DNA from: an uncultured virus (IMG/VR IMGVR_UViG_2061766007_000970)
Lineage: Duplodnaviria > Heunggongvirae > Uroviricota > Caudoviricetes
Virus record (IMG/VR): IMGVR_UViG_2061766007_000970
DNA: 64,000 bases
Reading direction: 5' to 3' (one strand)
Shown: positions 2,944 through 57,999 of the stretch, in pieces
Numbering within the stretch: the first letter of the stretch is position 1
Layout: every line of letters begins with the position of its first letter
Notes under the pieces: generated by a model
What the model was told of the DNA's origin: nothing
The model's database searches: none
Seen by the model: only the letters and a program-made list of their open reading frames with translations
Translations under genes and position numbers: made by a program

Positions 2944-3477
2944 ATGTATAGTGTATATGCAGTTCTTGATTCGAGCTACACCTTCACAGGTAACTCAAGA
3001 CAGGCTTCGTTCGGTGTCGAAGCAGATGCAGCGCTGGAGTGTCACTCGCTTTCTTTTGCGCTTGCGGACGAGGTGCAGTTCAAGGGCGGTGAGTTTCGCA
3101 TCGTCCGTGCGAGGCTTTTGGCTTCGGGCGCTATTGGCCTCGCTCCCGGAAAGGAAAAAATCGCGGGCAACGTGAAGCTGAAATTCGTGACCGGAGGCGA
3201 GGATGCTTCGGGCTCATTCGAGCTTTCGTTCGTAAAGTGGGACGAGTGGGTTGATCAGGATTTACGCATCGGCGTCGCAGATTCCGCTGTTGGCAAGGAC
3301 TGCGAACTTGCGGTCATCAAGAACGGCACCACGTTCACGTGTGACGACTTCAATATCGACTCTGCGTACTCCGGCGAAACTGTCGTCCCGATGCTCGAGC
3401 TCGAAATCGAGGCGGAACGTGACTCCGTAACGAGGAGGATGACTCATGGGTATGTACAAAATAAGTTCGATATATAA
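2944..3477 (+). CDS. Hypothetical phage protein (beta-rich, likely structural)
   Basis: 177-aa ORF with GAGG RBS between the tail gene and the DGR target. Confidence 0.6.
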   Translation: MYSVYAVLDSSYTFTGNSRQASFGVEADAALECHSLSFALADEVQFKGGEFRIVRARLLASGAIGLAPGKEKIAGNVKLKFVTGGEDASGSFELSFVKWDEWVDQDLRIGVADSAVGKDCELAVIKNGTTFTCDDFNIDSAYSGETVVPMLELEIEAERDSVTRRMTHGYVQNKFDI

Positions 3478-4583
3478 GGGCGGTCACGGCGTGTACCGCT
3501 CCGGCATTTACAAGGGCGTGAACGTCGTTGTTTCGCGCCCCAATCAGGGCGACGCGGTGTACGTGCCGACCACGAGCGTGTATAGCTCGGCAACTCCTGG
3601 CAGCGGCGTTACGGAAGGCTCTGTGACGTTCGTCGCTGGCGATACCGTTGACGACGCCAAGATGACGGCGGCGGGCTTCACCGCGCTCGGCGTCGTGGCG
3701 AGCGTGAGCGGCAACAAGTGCTACGTGCTGTATAAGAACGTTGGTGCTGCCGGTCCTTTCTTTACCGGCGCGACATCTTCTGCATATACCATTCCGTCCG
3801 ACAAGCTTTCCGATGCAGACATTAATAAAATCAAGGCTGGAGACGCCGAGGATACGCAGGGTCTTGTCGGCTTCCGCGCAACCTGCCAAATAGACGTGCT
3901 GTTTGCGTGGCTGACGGGCCGAGGCGGCGAGAGAGAGAACGAGGGCTGGAACGGCGGTACTAACGGGTTGCGAAACGACTTTCTTAACGGGGCCGACTGG
4001 GGCCTGACACTCGGTCCTGCGGCATCCGACATTACGGCTCATGACACTGCGACGTACAAGGTGGCCGAAACTATCGCCAAGTTTGGTGCAGGCGAGGCGN
4101 NNNNNNNNNCGGTTGGCGTATCCGAGCTCGCTGGCGAGCAATTCCGTCGTCTTCCAGGATGGCAAGGCGGCGACGAAGGTACTTGTCGATGCGAATGAGG
4201 CCGACAATTCGGCCTTCTTCCGAGTTGCGCAATTTGCCTACAACCATAACCTGACATGGGGTTCATACGGTCAGTTTGCGAATGTGGACGGACTTCGTCG
4301 TGGTGACTGGTTCCAGCCTGGGCTCGGCATCGTACAGGACATCTTCAGGCACGTCAAGTACACGCTCGAGAACCCTGCCGCAGACATATTTAACAAGACG
4401 CTGTCGAAAATCGGAGGCGGCGCGCTACAGCTTAACACGAACTCGATCAATTCGCGCTACTGGCTTCCCTTTGTCCGTTCCCGCTCCCTTGGCTGGAATT
4501 TGTACGCCACCGGGGCTTTCTACGGCAGCTACCCCCTGTACACCAACGGTCGGGCGTTGTCGGTTGCGCTCTTGGAAATTTAA
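3446..4583 (+). CDS. DGR target protein 1 (C-terminal C-type-lectin-like variable domain); interrupted by N gap 4100-4109
   Basis: ORFs 3446-4198 and 4041-4583 join across the gap; GDWFQP and YWLP...GW...G...RALSV C-terminus; 3' end matches the TR. Confidence 0.85.
4465..4574 (+). repeat. DGR variable repeat VR1
   Basis: 110 bp colinear with TR 5490-5599; 19 mismatches, all at TR adenines. Confidence 0.95.
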
Positions 4584-4598
4584 CATTTAACCTTCTTC

Positions 4599-4621
4599 GG
4601 CGCGGCCTTCAAAGCCGCGCC
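4599..4621 (+). promoter_or_regulatory. GC hairpin/cruciform downstream of VR1 (DGR target-recognition element)
   Basis: GGCGCGGC-CTTCAAA-GCCGCGCC; identical copy after VR3 at 9799-9821. Confidence 0.8.
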
Positions 4622-4644: not shown

Positions 4645-5469
4645 GTGTCAAAGAAAGTCGTCGATACTCCGATATACGTGGATACCTACAAGCTGGTTGG
4701 TATCGTGTACGGTCTGCGGTTTTCGATTCCAAAACGAGACAGGGCCGTTCTCGGCGACAGGCTCCTTGACGCGGCGACTGCGATGCTTGTCGAGTTCACT
4801 CTTTCTTACAAGTTGCGCGGAAACGAGAAGGTGGTTCACACGGACAGATTCCTCGCGCATTTTGAAGTGCTGAAAGGTCTGATGCGGCTGTGTATCGACA
4901 AGAAGGTGCTGCCTGGAAAAAAGTGCGTAGAATCATACGAATACATACAAAGAATTGACGATGGCATAGTCGCGTGGCGAGAAAGGATCGCCCGCGAAGT
5001 ACGGTCAACGACGGCATCAAACAATGGCCGCCATTCCGGCATGCAAGAACAGTTAAGAGGAGGCGANNNNNNNNNNAACTTGCGCTTCGCCATCCCGAAG
5101 CGCGACAGGGCTGTGCTTGGCGACAGGCTCCTTGACGCGGCGACTGCGATGCTTGTTGAGTTTACTCTTTCTTACAAGTTGCGCGGAAACGAGAAGGTTG
5201 TTCACACGGACAGGTTCCTTGCGCATTTCGAGGTGTTGAAAGGTCTGATGCGGCTGTGTATCGACAAGAAGGTGTTGCCCGGGAAAAAGTGCGTAGAATC
5301 ATACGAGTACATACAGAGAATTGACGATGGCATAATCGCGTGGCGAGAAAGAATTGCCCGCGAAGTACGGTCAACGGCGGCGTCAAACAATGGCTGTCGT
5401 TCCGGCGTGCAAGAACAGTTAAGAGGAGGCGACGGTATCATGAATACCAGTTCCGGCAGTGCGCCTTGA
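4645..5469 (+). CDS. avd: DGR accessory variability determinant (four-helix bundle, ~152 aa), present as two overlapping haplotype copies joined by Ns
   Basis: GTG start with AAGGA RBS; PIY..TYKL...PK.DR..LG.RL...GI.AW pattern; lies between VR and TR. Confidence 0.85.
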   Translation: MSKKVVDTPIYVDTYKLVGIVYGLRFSIPKRDRAVLGDRLLDAATAMLVEFTLSYKLRGNEKVVHTDRFLAHFEVLKGLMRLCIDKKVLPGKKCVESYEYIQRIDDGIVAWRERIAREVRSTTASNNGRHSGMQEQLRGGXXXXNLRFAIPKRDRAVLGDRLLDAATAMLVEFTLSYKLRGNEKVVHTDRFLAHFEVLKGLMRLCIDKKVLPGKKCVESYEYIQRIDDGIIAWRERIAREVRSTAASNNGCRSGVQEQLRGGDGIMNTSSGSAP

Positions 5470-5489
5470 TGCAGCTTCGGCTGCGGCGG

Positions 5490-5599
5490 TTCCCTTTGTC
5501 CGTTCCCGCTCCAATGGCTGGAATTTGAACAACAACGGGAATTTCAACGGCAACAACAACCTGAACAACAACAATCGGGCGTTGTCGGTTGCGAACTTG
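5490..5599 (+). ncRNA. DGR template repeat (TR)
   Basis: Intergenic between avd and RT; every adenine lies in an AAC/AAT codon in the target frame; matches three VRs. Confidence 0.95.
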
Positions 5600-5626
5600 A
5601 CTAATGCAGGCCGTTCGGTGGATAGT

Positions 5627-6167
5627 ATGGTATTGCTAGATGAATTGCTAGAGACCTATTTCGTTGCGCGTAGCAACAAGCGCCGCTCGAGAGACGCGGT
5701 ATTGTTCGAGATGTGCTTTGAAAAGTCTCTCGTCCGTCTATGCAATGACCTGAACGGGCGCAGGCTCGATACTACCCCGAACTATGCCTTCGTCGTTTTT
5801 AGTCCCAAGGCGAGAGAAATTTTCGCCACGGCGATGTACGTGCGCATCGTGCATCACTACCTGGACCGCAAGTTGCGCCCGATATACGAGGACGTGCTTT
5901 CGGACCGTACCTACAACAACCGCAAGGGAAAAGGCTTGCACGCCTGCATTGCGAACTTTCGCGAGGATGTGCGCGAGATGACCTGCAACTACACGCGTGA
6001 CGCCTGGATAGTCCACATNNNNNNNNNNCCGAGAGGATGTGCGCGAGATGACCTGCAACTACACTCGCGATGCCTGGATTGTCCACATGGACCTCAAGGG
6101 CTATTTTCCGAACGCGTACGTAGAGATTGCGCTTGCGCAGCAACTTGACCTGATTGAACGCTACTAT
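5627..6167 (+). CDS. DGR reverse transcriptase, N-terminal half (two overlapping contigs)
   Basis: AR.NKR, PK.REIFA, RIVHH, R.GKG, DLKGYF motifs; immediately downstream of the TR. Confidence 0.9.
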
Positions 6168-6682: not shown

Positions 6683-7391
6683 GGGGTCTCTCGACTAACG
6701 ACTTCACGGATGCGTACAAGGGCAACGTGGACGAGAACACGTCGGCAAGACACTCGCACACTAACAAGGCCCTGCTTGACAACANNNNNNNNNNAGACAA
6801 AGTCGAAGGCAAGGGTCTCTCGACTAACGACTTCACGGATGCGTACAAGGGCAACGTTGACGCGAACACGTCGGCAAGACACTCGCACACTAACAAGGCC
6901 CTGCTTGACAACATCTCGCAGTCGGACATCGACAACTGGAATTCAAAGCAGGCCGCCCTGTCGTTTATGACGGACGCCGAAGTAGATGCACTTTTNNNNN
7001 NNNNNGTGCAGACATTGCTTGTCGGCGGAGAAGATGTGGCCGCGAAACTTGACGGCAAGGTAGACAAGGTCGAAGGCAAGGGTCTCTCGACTAACGACTT
7101 CACGGATGCGCTGAAGAACAAGCTCAACGGCATCGCCGCAGGTGCGGAAGTCAACGTGCAGAGCGACTGGAACCAGACGGATNNNNNNNNNNCAATTTCA
7201 CCGACACGTACAAGGACAACGTGAACGCTAACACGTCGGCAAGGCACACGCACACGAACAAGACCCTGCTTGACAACATCTCGCAGTCGGACATCGACAA
7301 CTGGAATTCCAAGCAGGGCGCTATCAGTTGGATGACAGACTCCGAAGTAGATGCACTTTTCACCGCGGCCTGGAATGCCGCCAACGCGTAG
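6683..7391 (+). CDS. Fragments of a head/tail fibre protein with DKVEGKGLSTNDFT repeats
   Basis: Recurrent KVDKVEGKGLSTNDFTD and HSHTNKALLD motifs on four small contigs; stop at 7389-7391. Confidence 0.6.
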
Positions 7392-7403
7392 GAGGTGACT
7401 TAA

Positions 7404-7574
7404 ATGCCGAATACATACGATGACAAGGCCATCAAAGGCTCGCAGCTTGAAAGGCTGACTACGAAGGTGTTGGAGAAGGTCGTTGAGAAGCAGGATATAA
7501 TCGACGCTGCCTACGACTCGACGAACCACCGACTGAAATTGAACAACGTGACGATAACCGTCCCGAACGCATAG
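7404..7574 (+). CDS. Small hypothetical protein (56 aa, MPNTYDDKAI...)
   Basis: GGAGGTG RBS; its TAG overlaps the RBS of the next gene. Confidence 0.6.
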   Translation: MPNTYDDKAIKGSQLERLTTKVLEKVVEKQDIIDAAYDSTNHRLKLNNVTITVPNA

Positions 7575-7586
7575 GAGATTTAGACC

Positions 7587-9783
7587 ATGGCAAGCTATAT
7601 AAACAAGTACGACGATGCCGCCGACTATTCGGCGGACGCTTCTGCCCGTGCGGCTCTCGGCAAGAGCACGGTTTCGCTCGAGGCCGACTCCGGCAAGGTG
7701 CACTTCGACGGCGTGAACGTTGTTGTTTCGCGTCCCAAGCAGGGCGACGCGGTGTATGTTCCGACAACGAGCGTGTACAGCACGGCCACTCCTGGCAGCG
7801 GTGTTGCCGAAGGCTCGGTGACGTTCGTTTCCGGAGATACCGTTGACGACGCCAAGATGTCTGCGGCGGGATTTACCGCACTCGGTGTCGTGGCGAGCGT
7901 GCGTGGAAATAAGTGCTACGTGCTGTACAAGACTGTCGGTGCCGCAGTGCCGTTCTTTACTGGTGCGACTTCTTCCTCTTACACGATTCCGTCCGACAAA
8001 CTTTCCGATGCCGANNNNNNNNNNAGTTTCGCTCGAGGCCGACTCCGGCAAGGTGCACTTCGACGGAGTGAACGTCGTTGTTTCGCGTCCCAAGCAGGGC
8101 GACGCGGTGTATGTTCCGACCACGAGCGTGTACAGTGCGGCCACTCCGGGTAGCGGCGTTACGGAAGGCTCTGTGACGTTCGTCGCTGGCGATACCGTTG
8201 ACGACGCCAAGATGACGGCGGCGGGATTTACCGCACTCGGTGTCGTAGCGAGCGTGCGCGGAAACAAGTGCTACGTGCTGTACAAGACTGTCGGCGCTGC
8301 GGGGCCGTTCTTTACCGGCGCGACTTCTTCCTCTTACACGATTCCGNNNNNNNNNNTTCGGTGCCGAAGGGCCGTTCTTTACTGGTGCGACTTCTTCCTC
8401 TTATACGATTCCGTCCGACAAACTTTCCGATGCCGACCTTGCTAAAATCACGGCTGGCGACGCGAAGGATACTCAGGGACTTGTCGGCTACCGTGCGACA
8501 TGCAGCGTAGACGTGCTGTTCGCGTGGCTCACTGGTCGTGGCGGCGCGAGCAAGAACGAGGGGTGGAACGGCGGTACTAACGGGTTGCAGAACGACTTTC
8601 TTAACGGGGCTGACTGGGGTCTGACGCTTGGTCCTGCGGCATCCAGCATTACGGCTCATGACGCTACGACGTACAAGGTGGCCGAAACTATCGCCAAGTT
8701 TGGTGCAGGCGAGGCGGGCTTCCGAAAGTATCTTGAATCTCGTAGATTGGCGTATCCGTGCTCGCTGGCGAGCAATTCCGTCGTCTTCCAGGACGGCAAN
8801 NNNNNNNNNCGACTGGGGTCTGACGCTTGGTCCTGCGGAATCCAGCATTACGGCTCATGACGCCACGACGTACAAGGTGACTGAAACTATTGCCAAGTTT
8901 GGTACAGGCGAGGCGGGCTTCCGCAAATATTTGGAATCTCGCAGGCTTGCGTATCCGTGCTCGCTGGCGAGCAATTCCGTCGTCTTCCAGGACGGCAAGG
9001 CTGCGACGAAGGTGCTTGTCGATGCGAATGATGCAGACAATTCGGCCTTCTTCCGAGTTGCGCAATTTGCCTACAACCATGACCTGACATGGGGTTCCTA
9101 CGGTCAGTTCGCGAATGTAGACGGGCTTCGCNNNNNNNNNNGGACAATTCGGCATTCTTCCGAGTTGCGCAGTTCGCCTACAACCATAACCTGACATGGG
9201 GTTCCTACGGCCAGTTTGCGAATGTGGACGGACTTCGCCGTGGCGATTGGTTCCAGCCTGGGCTCGGCATCGTGCAGGACGTCTTCAGGCACGTCAAGTA
9301 TACGCTCGAAAGCCCTGCTGCCGACGTGTTCAACAAGACGCTGTCGAAAATCGGCGGCAGCACNNNNNNNNNNCGTGGCGATTGGTTCCAGCCCGGGCTC
9401 GGTATCGTGCAGGACATCTTCAGGCACGTCAAGTATACGCTCGAGAGTCCTGCTGCCGACGTATTCAACAAGACGCTGTCGAAAATCGGCGGCAGCACGC
9501 TTCAGCTTAACACTAACTCGAACGATTCGCGCTATTGGCTTCCCTTTGTCCGTTCCCGCTCCGGTGGCTGGAGTTTGCCATACAGCGGGTTTTTCACCGG
9601 CAGCACCCCCATGCACTACATCAGTCGGGCGTTGTCGGTCGCGCTCTTGGATATTTAACCTTCCACCTTATTCGNNNNNNNNNNAATGGCTGGAATTTGA
9701 ACAGCACCGGGTATTTCATCGGCGGCTCCAACCCCCTGACCTACAACTTTCGGGCGTTGTCGGTCGCGCTCTTGGATATTTAA
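7587..9783 (+). CDS. DGR target protein 2, tiled as overlapping fragments of at least two haplotypes
   Basis: AGGAG RBS; body from GVNVVVSRP onward nearly identical to target 1; ends in VR2 or VR3. Confidence 0.85.
9540..9649 (+). repeat. DGR variable repeat VR2
   Basis: 110 bp colinear with the TR; mismatches at adenines plus three non-A differences. Confidence 0.9.
9685..9774 (+). repeat. DGR variable repeat VR3 (5' part in gap)
   Basis: Adenine-position mismatches to the TR, one extra codon, and GTC for TR GTT. Confidence 0.9.
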
Positions 9784-9798
9784 CCTTCCACCTTATTC

Positions 9799-9821
9799 GG
9801 CGCGGCCTTCAAAGCCGCGCC
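9799..9821 (+). promoter_or_regulatory. GC hairpin downstream of VR3
   Basis: Identical to 4599-4621 although the flanks differ. Confidence 0.8.
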
Positions 9822-9843
9822 TGCACACCAAAAGGATCTCCGC

Positions 9844-10176
9844 GTGTCAAAGAAAGTCGTCGATACACCGATATACATAGATACCTACAAGCTCGTGGGT
9901 ATCGTGTATAACCTGCGCTTTGCGATACCGAAGCGCGATAGGGCCGTGCTCGGCGACAGGCTTCTTGATGCCGTGACGGCAATGCTCGTTGAGTTTACGC
10001 TGTCATACAAGTTGCGCGGAAACGAGAAGGTAGTCCACACTGACAGATTCCTCGCNNNNNNNNNNACTCGTGGGCATCGTGTATAACCTGCGCTTTGCGA
10101 TACCGAAGCGCGATAGGGCCGTGCTTGGCGACAGGCTCCTTGACGCCGTGACGGCAATGCTCGTTGAGTTTACGCT
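9844..10176 (+). CDS. avd: Avd, partial additional haplotype copies
   Basis: MSKKVVDTPIYIDTYK..., near-identical protein to the 4645 copy with many synonymous changes. Confidence 0.8.
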
Positions 10177-26667: not shown

Positions 26668-27084
26668 TTAGACAAACTGGATTTCCAGGCGTTTTCCCAT
26701 GCTTTGGGCGATGCGCTTTAGCATCTTGACGCTTAAATTTGCCTTGCGGCTTTCGAGCCGCTGGTACGCCTGTTTTGTCATGCCCATTTCACGGGCGATT
26801 GTTGCTTGCGGTACTTTTCCGCGTGCGGCTGCCACTTGTAGTGCCACGGCGAGTTCAGGATCTACTTCTATACGGTAAAGTCCTTTGCTTTCGTTGGCTT
26901 TTGTCTTGCTGACGGGTAACGGTTCGCCGTCAAAGACGTCTTCGAGAGTGAGTTCCATCGCCTCACGTGCTCTCTCAAGTGCCTCTTCAAGCGTATTTCC
27001 CTGCGTAAAGCACCCGTCAAGGTCGGGGAACGATACGGAGTAGCCGCCGTCCTTCTCCTTGGTTAGTTTCGCAGTATAGTTCAT
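26668..27084 (-). CDS. hicB: HicB antitoxin with C-terminal HTH
   Basis: GYSVSFPDLDGCFTQG.TLEEA motif. Confidence 0.95.
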   Translation of the reverse strand: MNYTAKLTKEKDGGYSVSFPDLDGCFTQGNTLEEALERAREAMELTLEDVFDGEPLPVSKTKANESKGLYRIEVDPELAVALQVAAARGKVPQATIAREMGMTKQAYQRLESRKANLSVKMLKRIAQSMGKRLEIQFV

Positions 27085-29581: not shown

Positions 29582-30292
29582 GTCGGCGACGACGAGGATG
29601 ATCTGAAGTACATGATGGCCTCGTGTATGCGTGCCGACCCTGCACGGCATTGCGGCGTATATGTTCCGCGTTCAAACTGGTACGCGATTGCTCCGGAAAA
29701 GAGTCTGTTCAACAAGCCGGTAGGCACGGGAGGTGCGATAGGATTTCTTTGCTGGCAAAACGCGATGGGTCACTATATCAACAATGTCGTGAAGTGGCTG
29801 CAGACGTTTGGTTTTTTACGTGTCGTTGTATTCGTCGACGATATCTATATCGTGACTACCGACAAGGCGAAATTCCTCTCGATGATGCCGCAGATACGCG
29901 CAAGGCTTTCCGCTTTGAAGGTACGGCTGAACGAAAAGAAATTCTACTGCCAGCACTATTCGAAAGGCGTGCACATGCTCGGCAGTCGCATAAAATTCGA
30001 CCGCGAGTATGCCGACAACGGCGCGGTGCGTCGAGCATTTGCGAAGATCGAGGAATGGAGGAACGAACGGAGCATCCATTGGAAAATCGCTCGTCTGCTT
30101 TCGTCGATGAATACCTACATCGGAATTTTCAGAACAAAGAATATGCGGAATGTCGCCGAGCGATTCAGGCATGAAGTGCTGACATCGTTCAGGCGGTATT
30201 TGCAATGGAATGACAAGAAGAACTGCTTTGCGCTGCGTGCCCGCTACGGTTTTCGTGCGGTGCTTCGGCGCAAGTACAAGGTGAGGCTGTGA
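29582..30292 (+). CDS. DGR reverse transcriptase, C-terminal half
   Basis: KSLF...GGAIGFLCWQ, FVDD, LNEKK..QH.SKGV.MLG, S.NTY.G; plausibly continues the fragment ending at 6167. Confidence 0.9.
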   Translation, partial: VGDDEDDLKYMMASCMRADPARHCGVYVPRSNWYAIAPEKSLFNKPVGTGGAIGFLCWQNAMGHYINNVVKWLQTFGFLRVVVFVDDIYIVTTDKAKFLSMMPQIRARLSALKVRLNEKKFYCQHYSKGVHMLGSRIKFDREYADNGAVRRAFAKIEEWRNERSIHWKIARLLSSMNTYIGIFRTKNMRNVAERFRHEVLTSFRRYLQWNDKKNCFALRARYGFRAVLRRKYKVRL

Positions 30293-32647
30293 TGGCTAGT
30301 TATGACTTGAAGGCGATTTTGGGCGAAAAGTTAAGGTATCTTACTGACAAGATTCTCAAGGCGCTTGTTGACTGCATGTGCACGGTAGGAGCGTCGTTGT
30401 GCAGCCTGGACAAGCGCGTGTCCGCCCTTGAGAGCGTTGAAATCCCGGAAGGTGGCTACAAGCCCATGCAGGAGCCCGTGGCGTCGCCGATCGCGAGCGG
30501 TACGGCCATCCAGTTTATTGACTCGATTTTGCAGGACGCTACTGGTCGCACGACCTCGACTAAGAAGACTGTCAGGAGCGCTAGTGGGAGCCAGTCAGGA
30601 GTGATGAGCTCGGCGCACTACACCAAGTTGAATGCACTCTATTCAAAAGAAGAGCTTGACAATCTGTTTGATGGCAAGGTGGACAAGGTGCCTGCTGCCA
30701 CGGCAGGAAATATAGTCGTGTTCAACAGCACCGGAAATATCGCTAGCGCAGGCAAGAAGGNNNNNNNNNNAGCGTCTTACTGAAAAGACGCTCAAGGCGC
30801 TTGTTGACTGCATGTGTACGGTAGGAGCGTCGTTGTGCAGTTTGGACAAGCGAGTATCCGCCCTTGAAAGCGTGGAGCTCCCGGAAGGCGGCTACAAGCC
30901 AATGCAGGAGCCCGTGGCATCGCCGAGCGCAAGCGGCACGGCCATTCAGTTTATTGAATCCGTATCGCAGGACGCTACCGGTCGCATGACTGCGACAAAG
31001 AAAACTGTTCGCACGGGAAGTGGTTCACAGACTGGAGTGCTGAAGTTGTCGGATTCTACCAGTTCCATTTTGGGAGTGAATGGGGGAATTGCTGCGACTC
31101 CGGCTGCAGTGAAGGCTGCTTACGATTTTGCAAGCGGCAAGGTGAGCCATACGTCCGTGACTTCGCTTGCGGACTGGGACACGCTCACCGACACGGGCAT
31201 CTACGAGATTACGTCGCAGGCGAGCGGTGTGGCCCATTCCCCCGAATCTGGTATCATGACGCTTCTCGTCATGAAGGCGGGTTCGTTCATCACGCAGACC
31301 GCCGTAGGAAAGGAAGTCTACAAGCGATGCTACACTTCCGGATCATGGACGGATTGGCAGAGGTGCAACGAGTTCGTAACGACATACAATTCCAGCACTC
31401 CGAGTTTTGCCGCGACCAAGACTGCATACGCAAGCGGAGCGGACATCGTCTGTATCGAGAACGAGAGCGGGCAGGGCGGTACGTTCGACCACGTCGCGAG
31501 ATTGCAGGAAGTTGTCTACGAGAGCGGGAATATCAGCAAGTTCGTGTTCGCGATAAGCCGCTGCCTGAACGCTTCCAACATTGGGGAAATCGTCAAGTAC
31601 GAGTATGCGTCTAGCGGGTGGACAAAGAGCGTTTCGAAGGTGGTTGAATCAGAGTATGTCCGCCAGCAGCACGAAAACGAGATCAACTTCAAGAACGTCC
31701 CGGCGACTCCTTCGTCGGGCGGCAGCAACATTAGCCGTGTGTGGTTCAATTATCGCAACGGGGATACTGACGCTTCCGACTCCGGAAAATTGATTACTGA
31801 ATATAGGTTTGGCAACCGCAACGGTTCGACAAGCGGAGTAAAGCTAGTGGCAGACGAGTTCTCGGGGCTTGCAGCATCCGCGGCCAACTACAGGTTTGCA
31901 GGGCAGGACTATCCGATAGGAGAAGCTATTGGTGGGAAGCAGAATGCGCTGACTTTCACGGATGTCTACAACTCGACGAGCAACCGCGTCGTTGTTGAAT
32001 CTACGTTGAAGTCAAGAATGGGCTCGTACATGTTGTTGCTCAACAACCAGCCCGACGAGGAAAATCCTGTAATCGGGTGGGGTATGTTTACTGACGTCGG
32101 AGAGGAGATTGCGTCAGGTGTTCTTTCTTCAAGTGGTGATATGCAGGGGCAGCAGTTCCTCGACCAGATTGTCTACAAGGCGATGGGTCATGATGATTTT
32201 AATACGCTGCCAAGCAGATCTCCTGTTCTCGACATCATCAACGTCGGAAAGTTTTCGAACATGGCGACCGACTACTTCACCATGCATCCAGCTAGAGGAT
32301 GGATGTCGCAAAATGTAAGGCGCGAATGGCCGCAAAGGGTTAGAATCCGACTGACTCTAAACAACATTCGTAATGGGTCGTCGGGAAACGTACAGATTCA
32401 GGCCGGAGGACGAGTAAACAGCGAGGCTTATTTCAATCATGGAAATATATGGGTTGATGGCGTATTGACCGAGACGCCAAAATCGGGAGACCCGAGAGAG
32501 TGGGATGACGGAAGACTCAACATCGCATCGCTCGGAAGTGTACCTGCGAACGGTAGCCGTACGTGGGAAATCATGTACTGGAAGACATCTAACCCTGGAG
32601 CGGTAATCAATTATAACGAATACGTAGTCGTCACGACAATCAAATAG
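30289..32647 (+). CDS. Tail-fibre protein, two haplotypes sharing the N-terminus (30289-30760 partial; 30771-32647)
   Basis: GVLKL...AATPAAVKAAYD, TG.Y...P...W.DW fibre motifs; start overlaps the RT stop. Confidence 0.75.
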
Positions 32648-35335: not shown

Positions 35336-35515
35336 TCATTTTCCTGCCTCCAGGTAGTTGTCGATGAGCCAGCGGATGAAGGCGCTTGTGCTGCCGATGA
35401 TCGACGGCGCGACTCCGGCAAGCGCGGCTTTTCTCTGGGCACTTTCCAGGTCTTCGCAGTCCAGCATGACGTTCACGCGGGAAAGCGGTTTTTCACGTTC
35501 AAGCGGGCGTGGCAT
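35336..35515 (-). CDS. Small RHH-like regulator (59 aa); second haplotype at 36739-36918
   Basis: MPRP...RVNVMLD...STSAFIRWLID. Confidence 0.65.
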   Translation of the reverse strand: MPRPLEREKPLSRVNVMLDCEDLESAQRKAALAGVAPSIIGSTSAFIRWLIDNYLEAGK

Positions 35516-35517
35516 GG

Positions 35518-36045
35518 CTAGTCCTCCTCCCTGCTGCTGAATGCGTTTATGAAAGCGTCACCCCTGCCATCGACGAGCATGGCGAGGTTCGCGGTTTCAC
35601 TTTCTGCGAATTCGGTCTCGTCGTCGTCCAGGACGTAGATGGTGCTGTTGTCGACGGTGACTACCACGTTGTCCGGCGTGTTATTGTCGTCGACCCACGA
35701 CTCGATAATCTTGCGGGCCGCTCGTTCGTCGCGCTCGTCCGGCGATTCGTAGTTGTCCTCGTTGGCGCTGTCGTTGATTACAGCATTGCGCCATTCCTCG
35801 TATTCCGCGTCGCTGTCGAAGTCTTCGCGGGTCTCGTCGCTGTTGGCGTAGGTGTTGTACTTCTCGCCGTCGAATTCGCCCGTCTTCCACGACTCGTCGT
35901 GTGTCGTGAAGTAGTCCTCGGCGTACTCGCCTGTGGAACGGATGCCGATGTTGGCCTTGACCTTCCATGTTCCGTAGCCGTCGCTGAACACCTGGACGGA
36001 GACCTTCATCTCTTCGATAGCTTCTTTGATTGTGTACTTGCGCAT
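35518..36045 (-). CDS. Highly acidic hypothetical protein (175 aa); second haplotype at 37250-37777
   Basis: GCGAGGT RBS; 46 D/E vs 17 K/R by hand count. Confidence 0.8.
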   Translation of the reverse strand: MRKYTIKEAIEEMKVSVQVFSDGYGTWKVKANIGIRSTGEYAEDYFTTHDESWKTGEFDGEKYNTYANSDETREDFDSDAEYEEWRNAVINDSANEDNYESPDERDERAARKIIESWVDDNNTPDNVVVTVDNSTIYVLDDDETEFAESETANLAMLVDGRGDAFINAFSSREED

Positions 36046-36910: not shown

Positions 36911-37234
36911 CTAGGCATTTTTCGGGCTCTCCTTTCCGTCCAAAGTCTTGCTTACCTTATGGTAGATGTTAAAGACTAAATCTAAGCCCATCCTCGATCG
37001 CAGGGGGCTGTGGTGGCAAATGTGGTAGAACAGATCTGAATGATTCCACCCAAGCGATTGCCGTTTAGTCTTGATGGCTTCTACCAAGTGCTTAGCGATG
37101 TCATCCACATCCTGTTTGGTAGGTTCATCGTCAATGCTATATGGCAAGGTGTAGGCTACGTCATAGGTCTTGCTGTTCTGCAATTCAAAAAAGAAAATAT
37201 GGGGATTGTTAAGATGGTGGTTGTAGTGGTTCAT
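36911..37234 (-). CDS. Hypothetical protein present in only one haplotype
   Basis: Inserted between the acidic gene and the RHH gene. Confidence 0.6.
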   Translation of the reverse strand: MNHYNHHLNNPHIFFFELQNSKTYDVAYTLPYSIDDEPTKQDVDDIAKHLVEAIKTKRQSLGWNHSDLFYHICHHSPLRSRMGLDLVFNIYHKVSKTLDGKESPKNA

Positions 37235-38225
37235 ACGGGTGTTCCTTAGTTAGGGCTCCTCCCTGCTGTTGAATGCGTTGATGAACGCGTCACCCCTTCC
37301 ATCGACCAGCATGGCTAAGTTCGCTGTTTCACTTTCGGCGAAATTGCGCTCTTCCTCGTCAAGGATATAGATTGTGCTATTGTCGGCGGTGACTACCACG
37401 TTGCCCGGCGTGTTATTGTAGTCGACCCAGGACTCGATAATCGTCCGGGCGGCGCGTTCATTGCGCTCGTCGGGCGATTCGTAGTTGTCCTCGTTGGCGC
37501 TGTCGTTGATTACAGCATCTCTCCATTCCTCGTACTCCGCGTCACTGTCGAAGTCTTCGCGGGCCTGATCGCTGTTGGCGTAGGTGTTGTACTTCTCGCC
37601 GTCGAATTCGCCCGTCTTCCACTCTTCGTCGTGGGTGGTGAAGTAGTCCTCGGCGTACTCGCCAGTGGAGCGGAGGCCGATGTTTGCCTTGACCTTCCAA
37701 GTGCCGTACCCGTCGCTGAACACTTGGACGGTGTCCTTCATTTCTTCGATTGCTTCGTTTATCGTGTACTTTCGCATAGTGACCTCGCTTTGTTTGGGGT
37801 TTAAATGTTTTTTGAAAGTTTTGAAATTAAACAGCCATATTCCAAAGTTTTTCGCTAGTGCAGACGCGGTGGGCGAATTCTTCATCCTTGATCGTGGCGA
37901 GAACAGCATAGCCCTTAGCGCACATCTTCACTTCATTGCGAGTGAGTATTTTGGCAACAAAACCCTGAAACTTGCCGAAGCAGTCCATTTCTTCGACGTT
38001 CTTGCTGAAGAAAGTGATGATTCCGTCGAAGATGTCGATGTCGATGCGAGAAAGCCCGTTTTGTTATTTACATCTATAATATACACACTTTACGCACAAA
38101 ACACAAGTATAATTTTGTAAAAATTCTATTTACAAAACAAGCGGGCGAAAAATCGCATTTTTTAGGCTGTGACCAAAAAATGACCATGGTCTGTGCGAGC
38201 CTTTAATCACAATAAAATAAAATAA

Positions 38226-57582: not shown

Positions 57583-57999
57583 TTACACGAACTGGACTTC
57601 CAGGCGCTTGCCCATGCTCTCGGCGATGCGCTTTAGCATCTTGACGCTCAGGTTCGCCTTCGGGTCTTCAAGGCGCTGGTAGGCCTGCTTGGTCATGCCC
57701 ATTTCGCGGGCTACGGTTGCCTGTGGCACCTTGCCGCGAGCTGCGGCCACCTGGAGGGCAATAGCGAGTTCGGGGGCCACGTCGATGCGGTAGAGGCCCT
57801 TCTTCTCGTTTGCCTTTGTCTTGCATTCCGGCAGCGGGTCGCCGTCGAACACGTCTTCGAGGGTGAGTTCCATCGCTTCGTTCGCCATTGCGAGCGCTTC
57901 TTCAAGGGTGTCGCCCTGCGTAAAGCACCCGTCCAGATCGGGAAAGCTTACGGAGTAGCCACCATCCTTTTCCTTGGTGAGTTTTGCAGTGTAGTACAT
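57583..57999 (-). CDS. hicB: HicB antitoxin
   Basis: FPDLDGCFTQGDTLEEA + HTH. Confidence 0.95.
   Translation of the reverse strand: MYYTAKLTKEKDGGYSVSFPDLDGCFTQGDTLEEALAMANEAMELTLEDVFDGDPLPECKTKANEKKGLYRIDVAPELAIALQVAAARGKVPQATVAREMGMTKQAYQRLEDPKANLSVKMLKRIAESMGKRLEVQFV

Follow-up and report, generated by a model that had tools for sequence, protein, structure and literature searches.

The reverse transcriptase (RT) described here belongs to a sizeable lineage of DGR RTs, already catalogued and undiscussed in the literature that we searched, in which Trp takes the place of the signature Ser. We are highly confident that the surrounding element is a complete DGR of canonical architecture in a tailed phage of rumen or gut Fibrobacterota or Bacteroidota, that its RT is intact, that the unusual motifs are clade traits, and that the Ser-to-Trp change is tolerated. 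Judged by its sequence, the element is probably a normal, active DGR.

The window, by which we mean the whole 64,000-nucleotide stretch of DNA analysed, consists of 44 scaffolded pieces with runs of 10-108 N between them, and the order of the pieces is not that of the genome. Many regions of the same phage are present in duplicate, side by side in the window and 78-96% identical (two examples are given in Table 1), and therefore several strains of one phage have been co-assembled. The RT gene lies on three pieces, which we call the first, second and third. Their sum is 393 codons (130 + 27 + 236 residues), in line with the length of about 393 amino acids that the initial annotation had given for the joined halves, and translation reveals no in-frame stop in any of them. 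At the joint between the second and third pieces, where ERYY is followed by VGDD, nothing is missing relative to the 15 full-length homologues aligned. In a contiguous IMG/VR relative, L003, positions 7054-7191 correspond to window positions 6029-6166, and positions 7194-8152 to window positions 29583-30541. Because the pieces adjoin both in L003 and in the homologue alignment, the 23-kb split of the gene is a scaffolding artefact. The RT is thus, from its sequence, a single intact gene scattered over three pieces of a strain-mixed scaffold.

The three pieces are unequally related to L003 (94%, 85.5% and 81% identity for the first, second and third piece), and for this reason the joined protein may combine the haplotypes of different strains. 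We consider the chances about even that the 393-residue protein is an assembly composite of at least two co-occurring phage strains and not one natural allele. The many duplicates in the scaffold favor a composite, as do the SNPs in the overlap between the first and second pieces and a similarly uneven identity to the homologous protein P0001 (97%, 93% and 85%), whereas mosaicism in the relatives could also produce uneven identity. A composite origin would leave the claims about the motifs untouched, since the motifs hold in every homologue.

Strain-mixed metagenomic scaffolds can scatter the genes of a DGR far apart, and the piece that carries motifs 4 and 5 scarcely passes the Pfam RVT_1 threshold (30.1 bits, where 29.6 is required). 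The same piece matches PHROG 1423 'Reverse transcriptase' with an E-value of 8.6e-17. NCBIfam is without a DGR-RT model, and the top matches there, to group II intron RTs, reach 30-67 bits where the cut-off is 300. No second RT was found in the 64,000-nt window by tblastn. The gene immediately 3' of the RT stop codon (window 30289-32647) is tail-fibre-like, with a weak match to Pfam Phage_fiber_2. The N-terminal ~290 nt of this gene are present twice with 82% identity (30339-30625 and 30775-31061), separated by an N run, and represent another strain bubble.

The elements of the cassette follow one another in the order target gene with C-terminal VR, GC-rich hairpin, Avd, TR and RT (Table 1). 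The target gene, which has no Pfam or PHROG match, to a C-type-lectin-type fold or to any other family, lies in a region colinear with L003 4958-6527. The hairpin 3' of VR1 folds as DNA with -11.9 kcal/mol, and its placement matches that of a DGR target-recognition hairpin, the function that we infer for it. Its loop has 7 nt, in contrast to the 4-nt GRNA loop of BPP-1-type elements, which is the one that myDGR seeks, and no comparable GC hairpin was found 3' of the TR. The accessory gene matches PHROG 3206 'Avd protein of DGR' (E 3.7e-12) and scores 24.5 bits with Pfam bAvd, under the cut-off of 40. It is covered by two overlapping haplotype copies that form a direct repeat (4715-5014 and 5081-5380, 91% identity). 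A second haplotype of target gene and Avd occupies window 7587-10176 as several overlapping pieces, with VRs of its own (VR2 and the partial third variant) and without an RT piece of its own.

Table 1. Coordinates of the DGR features and of two duplicated regions in the window.
Feature	Position	Strand	Description
Target (variable protein) gene, 5' part	3446..4099	+	From the ORF list; ends at N run 4100-4109
Target gene, 3' part	4110..4583	+	Ends ...GRALSVALLEI and stop; VR at C-terminus
VR1	4465..4574	+	110 nt, inside the target ORF that ends at 4583
GC-rich hairpin	4599..4621	+	24 nt 3' of VR1; 8-bp stem GGCGCGGC/GCCGCGCC, 7-nt loop CTTCAAA
Avd accessory gene	4645..5066	+	Ends at N run 5067-5076
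Avd 3' part, second overlapping haplotype copy	5077..5469	+	Runs to the stop codon (translation)
TR	5490..5599	+	AAC-rich; in the RT frame reads NNNGNFNGNNNLNNNN
RT, first piece	5627..6018	+	Residues 1-130, MVLLDE...WIVH, 130 aa; includes MYVRIVHH
RT, second piece	6030..6167	+	19-aa overlap with the first piece (SNPs), 27 aa new; catalytic-Asp motif MDLKGYFPN; ends ERYY
VR2	9540..9649	+	In the second strain haplotype of the target gene
Third VR variant, partial	9685..9774	+	3-nt indel relative to TR
RT, third piece	29582..30292	+	VGDDEDD...KVRL, 236 aa and stop; motifs 4 and 5, thumb
Motif 4	29729..29758	+	GGAIGFLCWQ, in frame from 29582
Motif 5	29831..29842	+	FVDD, catalytic aspartates
Duplicated region, first example	26668-26967 / 57583-57882		
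Duplicated region, second example	35497-35796 / 37229-37528		

The region that contains the TR (window 5459-5626) has an open frame continuous with that of the RT, so that gene callers place the RT start inside the TR and predict proteins of 436-450 aa (P0001-P0009) whose first ~55 residues are TR-encoded (..NNNGNFNGNNNLNNNN..). Residues 1-52 of P0002, which are encoded by the TR, are predicted to be disordered (pLDDT <50).

VR1 differs from the TR at 19 positions, all of which are TR adenines (19 of 30 adenines and 0 of 80 other bases; Fisher 6e-14). VR2 carries 20 mismatches on adenines and 3 on other bases. When compared with each other, the two VRs differ at 19 of the 30 TR-adenine positions and at 3 of the 80 other positions, and the sequences that flank them are 88% identical. 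Differences of this kind would be expected if diversification is under way in the sampled population. By homology to Bordetella phage BPP-1, RT-Avd would bind an Avd-TR-RT-5' transcript and copy the TR into cDNA, often misincorporating opposite adenines, and this cDNA would then take the place of the VR at the 3' end of the tail or receptor-binding gene. The enzymatic activity of the RT, its dependence on Avd and the steps of retrohoming are all expected from this homology.

The motifs called in the initial annotation are present as described: GGAIGFLCWQ and FVDD appear in the translation of the third piece, and MYVRIVHH, placed in the N-terminal half, lies in the first. The adenine-specific change of the VRs that it reported is likewise borne out by VR1. 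Schillinger et al. (2012) defined the signature [I/V/L]GxxxSQ and, in the text available, call it 'largely necessary and sufficient'. The RT of the window departs from this signature with IGFLCWQ, in which I, G and Q are present, as had been claimed, and Ser is replaced by Trp; both aspartates of motif 5 are also present. SQ occurs in 90% of the 155 DGR RTs of Schillinger et al. (2012), and the available text gives SP, SH, NQ, PA, AQ and VQ, and not WQ, for the 15 RTs that vary in the last two residues.

Searches for WQ/FVDD homologues, which the initial annotation had proposed, reveal that these motifs are widespread among relatives. All 15 of the longer homologues from a search of 5.8 billion proteins (32-85% identity) have xIG(F/Y/R)LxW(Q/R) and xFVDD; motif 4 ends with Q in 14 of them and with R in the remaining one, P0003. 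A phmmer search of 1.84 billion cluster representatives with the third piece gave 523 matches at E<=1e-3, of which the best 150 were analysed. After 27 that do not span motif 4 were set aside, the remaining 123 representatives end motif 4 with SQ (71), WQ (28), AQ (6) or scattered variants. Motif 4 position 3 is F, H, R, Y, W or S in 27 of these 28 WQ representatives versus N or D in 66 of the 71 SQ representatives. When IMG/VR was scanned for the pattern of a 30-row alignment, 547 stretches emerged, 510 of them confirmed relatives; the best 80 of the 510 loci comprise 61 with WQ, 16 with SQ, two with MQ and one with TGA at the Trp codon.

The initial annotation regarded both motifs as non-canonical. 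For motif 4 this stands, because the Ser of the signature is replaced, but FVDD is ordinary. Phe for the Tyr of YxDD occurs in 14% of the 155 DGR RTs of Schillinger et al. (2012), as given in the available text, and motif 5 Phe occurs in 12 of the 71 SQ-type representatives from the best 150 of 523 matches.

To place the WQ sequences we computed a FastTree phylogeny of 154 rows, made up of 95 database proteins (330-620 aa, both motifs covered) and 59 IMG/VR loci; 21 of the 80 loci were left out because they are at least 90% identical to a retained locus. A single clade of 96 rows, with an SH-like support of 98, contains all 75 WQ rows, which nest among SQ-type DGR RTs, in agreement with the earlier proposal of a distinct DGR RT lineage. 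The remaining members of the clade are 12 SQ rows and nine that have other residues. A subclade made up of 11 of these SQ rows, with IGR(L/M)xSQ and xFMDD, is nested beside IGRLxWQ/CFVDD rows with a support of 100; in FastTree, this subclade looks like a reversal inside the WQ clade. The Asp of 'F(R)DR(I/V)VHH' is missing in 75 of 75 WQ rows and present in 39 of 57 SQ rows. Further departures of the WQ lineage are 'NNRKGxG' in place of 'NCRKGKG' and 'YFPN' in place of 'FFMS' after the first catalytic Asp. By these sequence comparisons, what is non-canonical in the motifs is a trait of the lineage, a large clade with IG(F/H/R)LxWQ and mostly xFVDD.

In one IMG/VR locus (L043 6016-7125), a WQ-clade RT has eight in-frame TGA and no TGG codons, with TGA also at the motif 4 Trp, and this phage apparently reads TGA as Trp; of the mismatches in its TR/VR pair, 20 of 21 are on A. 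Three RTs of the same broad clade (L067 and L073 of IMG/VR, and P0039) have PGKIIMQ or AGMLIEQ as motif 4 and YGDD as motif 5, lack an Ile equivalent to bRT I181, and stand further from the signature in motif 4 than does the RT of the window. Despite this, the TR/VR pairs of L067 and L073 are A-biased (17 versus 2 and 18 versus 1 mismatches).

Genome matches point to the likely hosts. Among GTDB species represented by one genome each, a scan with a 10-row alignment gave WQ in 6 of 60 confirmed loci: three in Fibrobacter MAGs, two in Bacteroidales MAGs and one in a Parabacteroides MAG. The Fibrobacter MAG loci are the closest genome matches (54-58% identity) and are of the VFVDD type. The assignment of the carrier to tailed phages of rumen or gut Fibrobacterota or Bacteroidota shares the high confidence given above to the explanation as a whole, and the binning of phage contigs into MAGs is fallible as evidence for a host.

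The bRT of phage BPP-1 serves as a structural reference for these motifs. A profile of 30 clade members matches bRT (8ub7) with an E-value of 3.9e-33, the next match being a group II maturase at 3e-12. An AF2 model of P0002, a homologue with 80-85% identity (pLDDT 86.1), has bRT 8ub7_A as its best PDB match (TM 0.80, E 3.6e-15). The profile alignment places W on S186, F on S183, and I, G and Q on I181, G182 and Q187. Handa et al. (NAR 2021), as far as the text is available, showed adenine misincorporation to be promoted by R74 and I181 and its frequency to be unaffected by Q187P. According to the available text of the cryo-EM preprint of Handa et al. (bioRxiv), the template base is contacted by F66, I76, I181 and G182 and the incoming dNTP by R74, I181 and Q187, whereas K29 lies at the phosphate of the template and D138, D215 and D216 are catalytic; S186 is not mentioned there. 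A further paper (PLoS Genet 2026; PMC12875486) makes no mention of S186, I181 or Q187. By alignment, the RT of the window has identical counterparts of F66, R74, I76, I181, G182, Q187, K29, D138, D215 and D216. Since the bRT contact residues and the catalytic aspartates are kept, the Ser-to-Trp change would be tolerated without loss of adenine-specific mutagenesis.

The pattern of mutagenesis across the lineage agrees with this. In the best 80 of the 510 IMG/VR loci, we searched for a TR as a repeat whose first copy lies no more than 400 nt upstream of the RT. In 57 of the 61 WQ loci, the RT is immediately preceded by a TR, with a VR further upstream; no TR-VR pair was found in the remaining four (L027, L041, L042 and L061) within the sequence searched. 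Pooled over the 57 WQ loci, mismatches affect 971 of 1997 TR adenines versus 50 of 5025 other bases, and at least 90% of the mismatches are on A in 47 loci and less than 90% in ten. A pair was found in 15 of the 16 in-clade SQ loci, with mismatches at 245 of 569 adenines versus 7 of 1246 other bases. Because the adenine-specific TR/VR change persists with Trp, the Ser of 'SQ' is dispensable in nature.

It is also possible, though unlikely, that the RT is active and has been re-tuned by co-varying changes (loss of the DRxVHH Asp, N/S183 to F/H/R, S186 to W and Y213 to F), such that its spectrum, efficiency or processivity differs from that of SQ-type RTs. The four changes travel together: the Asp is kept in none of the 75 WQ rows, and position 3 of motif 4 is shifted in 27 of 28 WQ representatives. 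For ungapped, unique TR/VR pairs (48 WQ and 14 in-clade SQ), the A-to-C/G/T spectrum is 22/41/36% versus 22/32/46% (chi-square p 0.016). Changes affect 49% of the TR adenines in WQ loci and 43% in SQ loci (p 0.02). The difference in spectrum is a hint only, because the VRs have been selected and are phylogenetically non-independent, and because it is a single comparison with a weak, uncorrected p. Moreover, the mismatch rates at bases other than A are alike within the test (p 0.18 for the counts given above). S186 stands outside the described bRT contacts, as named in the available preprint text, and the result reported for Q187P suggests that this end of the motif is tolerant. Somewhat less likely still is that coupled changes around the template/dNTP pocket have made the WQ lineage a naturally re-engineered DGR polymerase with a measurably different adenine-misincorporation spectrum or efficiency, of which the larger share of A-to-G and the higher proportion of adenines changed are a hint. 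If so, selective infidelity would have been solved a second time and independently in this lineage, which could be compared with bRT.

That Trp for Ser and Phe for Tyr have left the RT catalytically dead or impaired, and that the A-specific VR differences are a relic or were made in trans by a canonical DGR RT of the phage or its host, is very improbable: motif 4 does depart from the signature as worded in the available text of Schillinger et al. (2012), but the ORF is intact, none of the catalytic aspartates or reported contact residues has been lost, 57 of 61 independent WQ loci have their own A-biased TR/VR adjoining the RT, the tblastn search of the window revealed no other RT, Phe for Tyr is common in accepted DGR RTs to judge by the same text, and W is fixed throughout a deep clade, to about 31-32% identity, which speaks for a functional enzyme under purifying selection.

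The preferred reading thus remains that of an intact RT whose motifs are those of its clade. A whole phage lineage uses Trp for the textbook Ser and still achieves clean adenine-specific diversification. The initial annotation saw in this RT a natural test of which residues adenine mutagenesis needs. The test does show that the Ser is dispensable, but it is weaker than claimed, because R74, I181, Q187 and the other bRT residues reported to matter are all retained. The candidates for selective infidelity are narrowed to the kept residues, namely the equivalents of I181, G182, Q187, R74, F66 and I76, and the WQ lineage provides natural sequences for back-mutation tests.

A further suggestion, that screens based on SQ and YxDD could miss this clade, does not hold for the main catalogues. 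RT detection by Roux et al. (2021) relies on HMMs and repeats, and that of myDGR on blastx against 155 RTs; neither Roux et al. (2021) nor the myDGR paper describes an SQ/YxDD string filter. Because detection is based on similarity, the lineage has been found and not missed. The first 4.0 million characters of the RT file of Roux et al. (2021) contain AIGFLCWQ three times, AIGFLIWQ twice, AIGFLVWQ once and AIGHLIWQ four times, and thus 10 WQ motifs versus 3037 SQ motifs in the same stretch (IGNLTSQ 2563, IGNLSSQ 474). The three AIGFLCWQ entries belong to DGR clade 3 and are viral, from rumen, with an A-bias of 1.000, a Phage_struct target and RT lengths of 394, 381 and 373. The initial annotation had held that its reading would fail if the motifs were common in catalogued DGR RTs, and this is partly the case, since WQ RTs are present in that clade of the catalogue.

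The word 'motif' is absent from the text of Roux et al. (2021) that was searched, as are the motif terms sought in Wu et al. (2018; PMC5758913), and a full-text literature search, with subscription-only papers outside its scope, found no mention of a WQ variant of the DGR RT. Because the lineage is part of the largest published DGR catalogue and its behavior is canonical, the understanding of DGRs is unchanged. Filters for DGR RTs that do use motif strings should admit IGxxx[SWAMNTV]Q and [YF]xDD; Babkin et al. (2024; PMC11054128), in the text available, report an SP-type RT as missed by myDGR.

Among the closest known systems is a cluster of 19 sequences in Roux et al. (2021), Meta_2049941000__900MB_Assembly_331030 of DGR clade 3, whose members have AIGFLCWQ and VFVDD like the RT of the window. 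Their RTs of 373-394 aa are viral and from rumen, with FCB bacteria as the associated group, a Phage_struct target (PC_00023) and an A-bias of 1.000; they represent the same lineage, and their sequences are not identical to that of the window. A precedent for departure from GxxxSQ is the DGR RT of an epsilon crAss-like phage with GxxxSP, described in the available text of PMC11054128. That RT is of another lineage and is changed at the Gln (SQ to SP), not at the Ser.

The nearest RT in a named cultured phage is that of Bacteroides phage Bacuni_F1/F2/F4 (MT635598 and relatives), with 33% identity. These phages have the gene order of the window, with Avd and a DUF1566-type target, and share the framework KSLF...G.G.AIG...NSYLG, whereas their RT has the canonical AIGNLFSQ, RYVDD and FEDRIVHH. 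With the bRT and Avd of Bordetella phage BPP-1 (PDB 8ub7 and related entries), the window has in common the logic of target-VR, Avd, TR and RT and the adenine-specific TR/VR differences. In contrast, its RT has ~21% identity to bRT, with W for S186, F for S183, F for Y213 and V for D83. It exceeds bRT by ~65 residues and has, between motifs 3 and 4, an insertion also present in Bacteroides-phage RTs.
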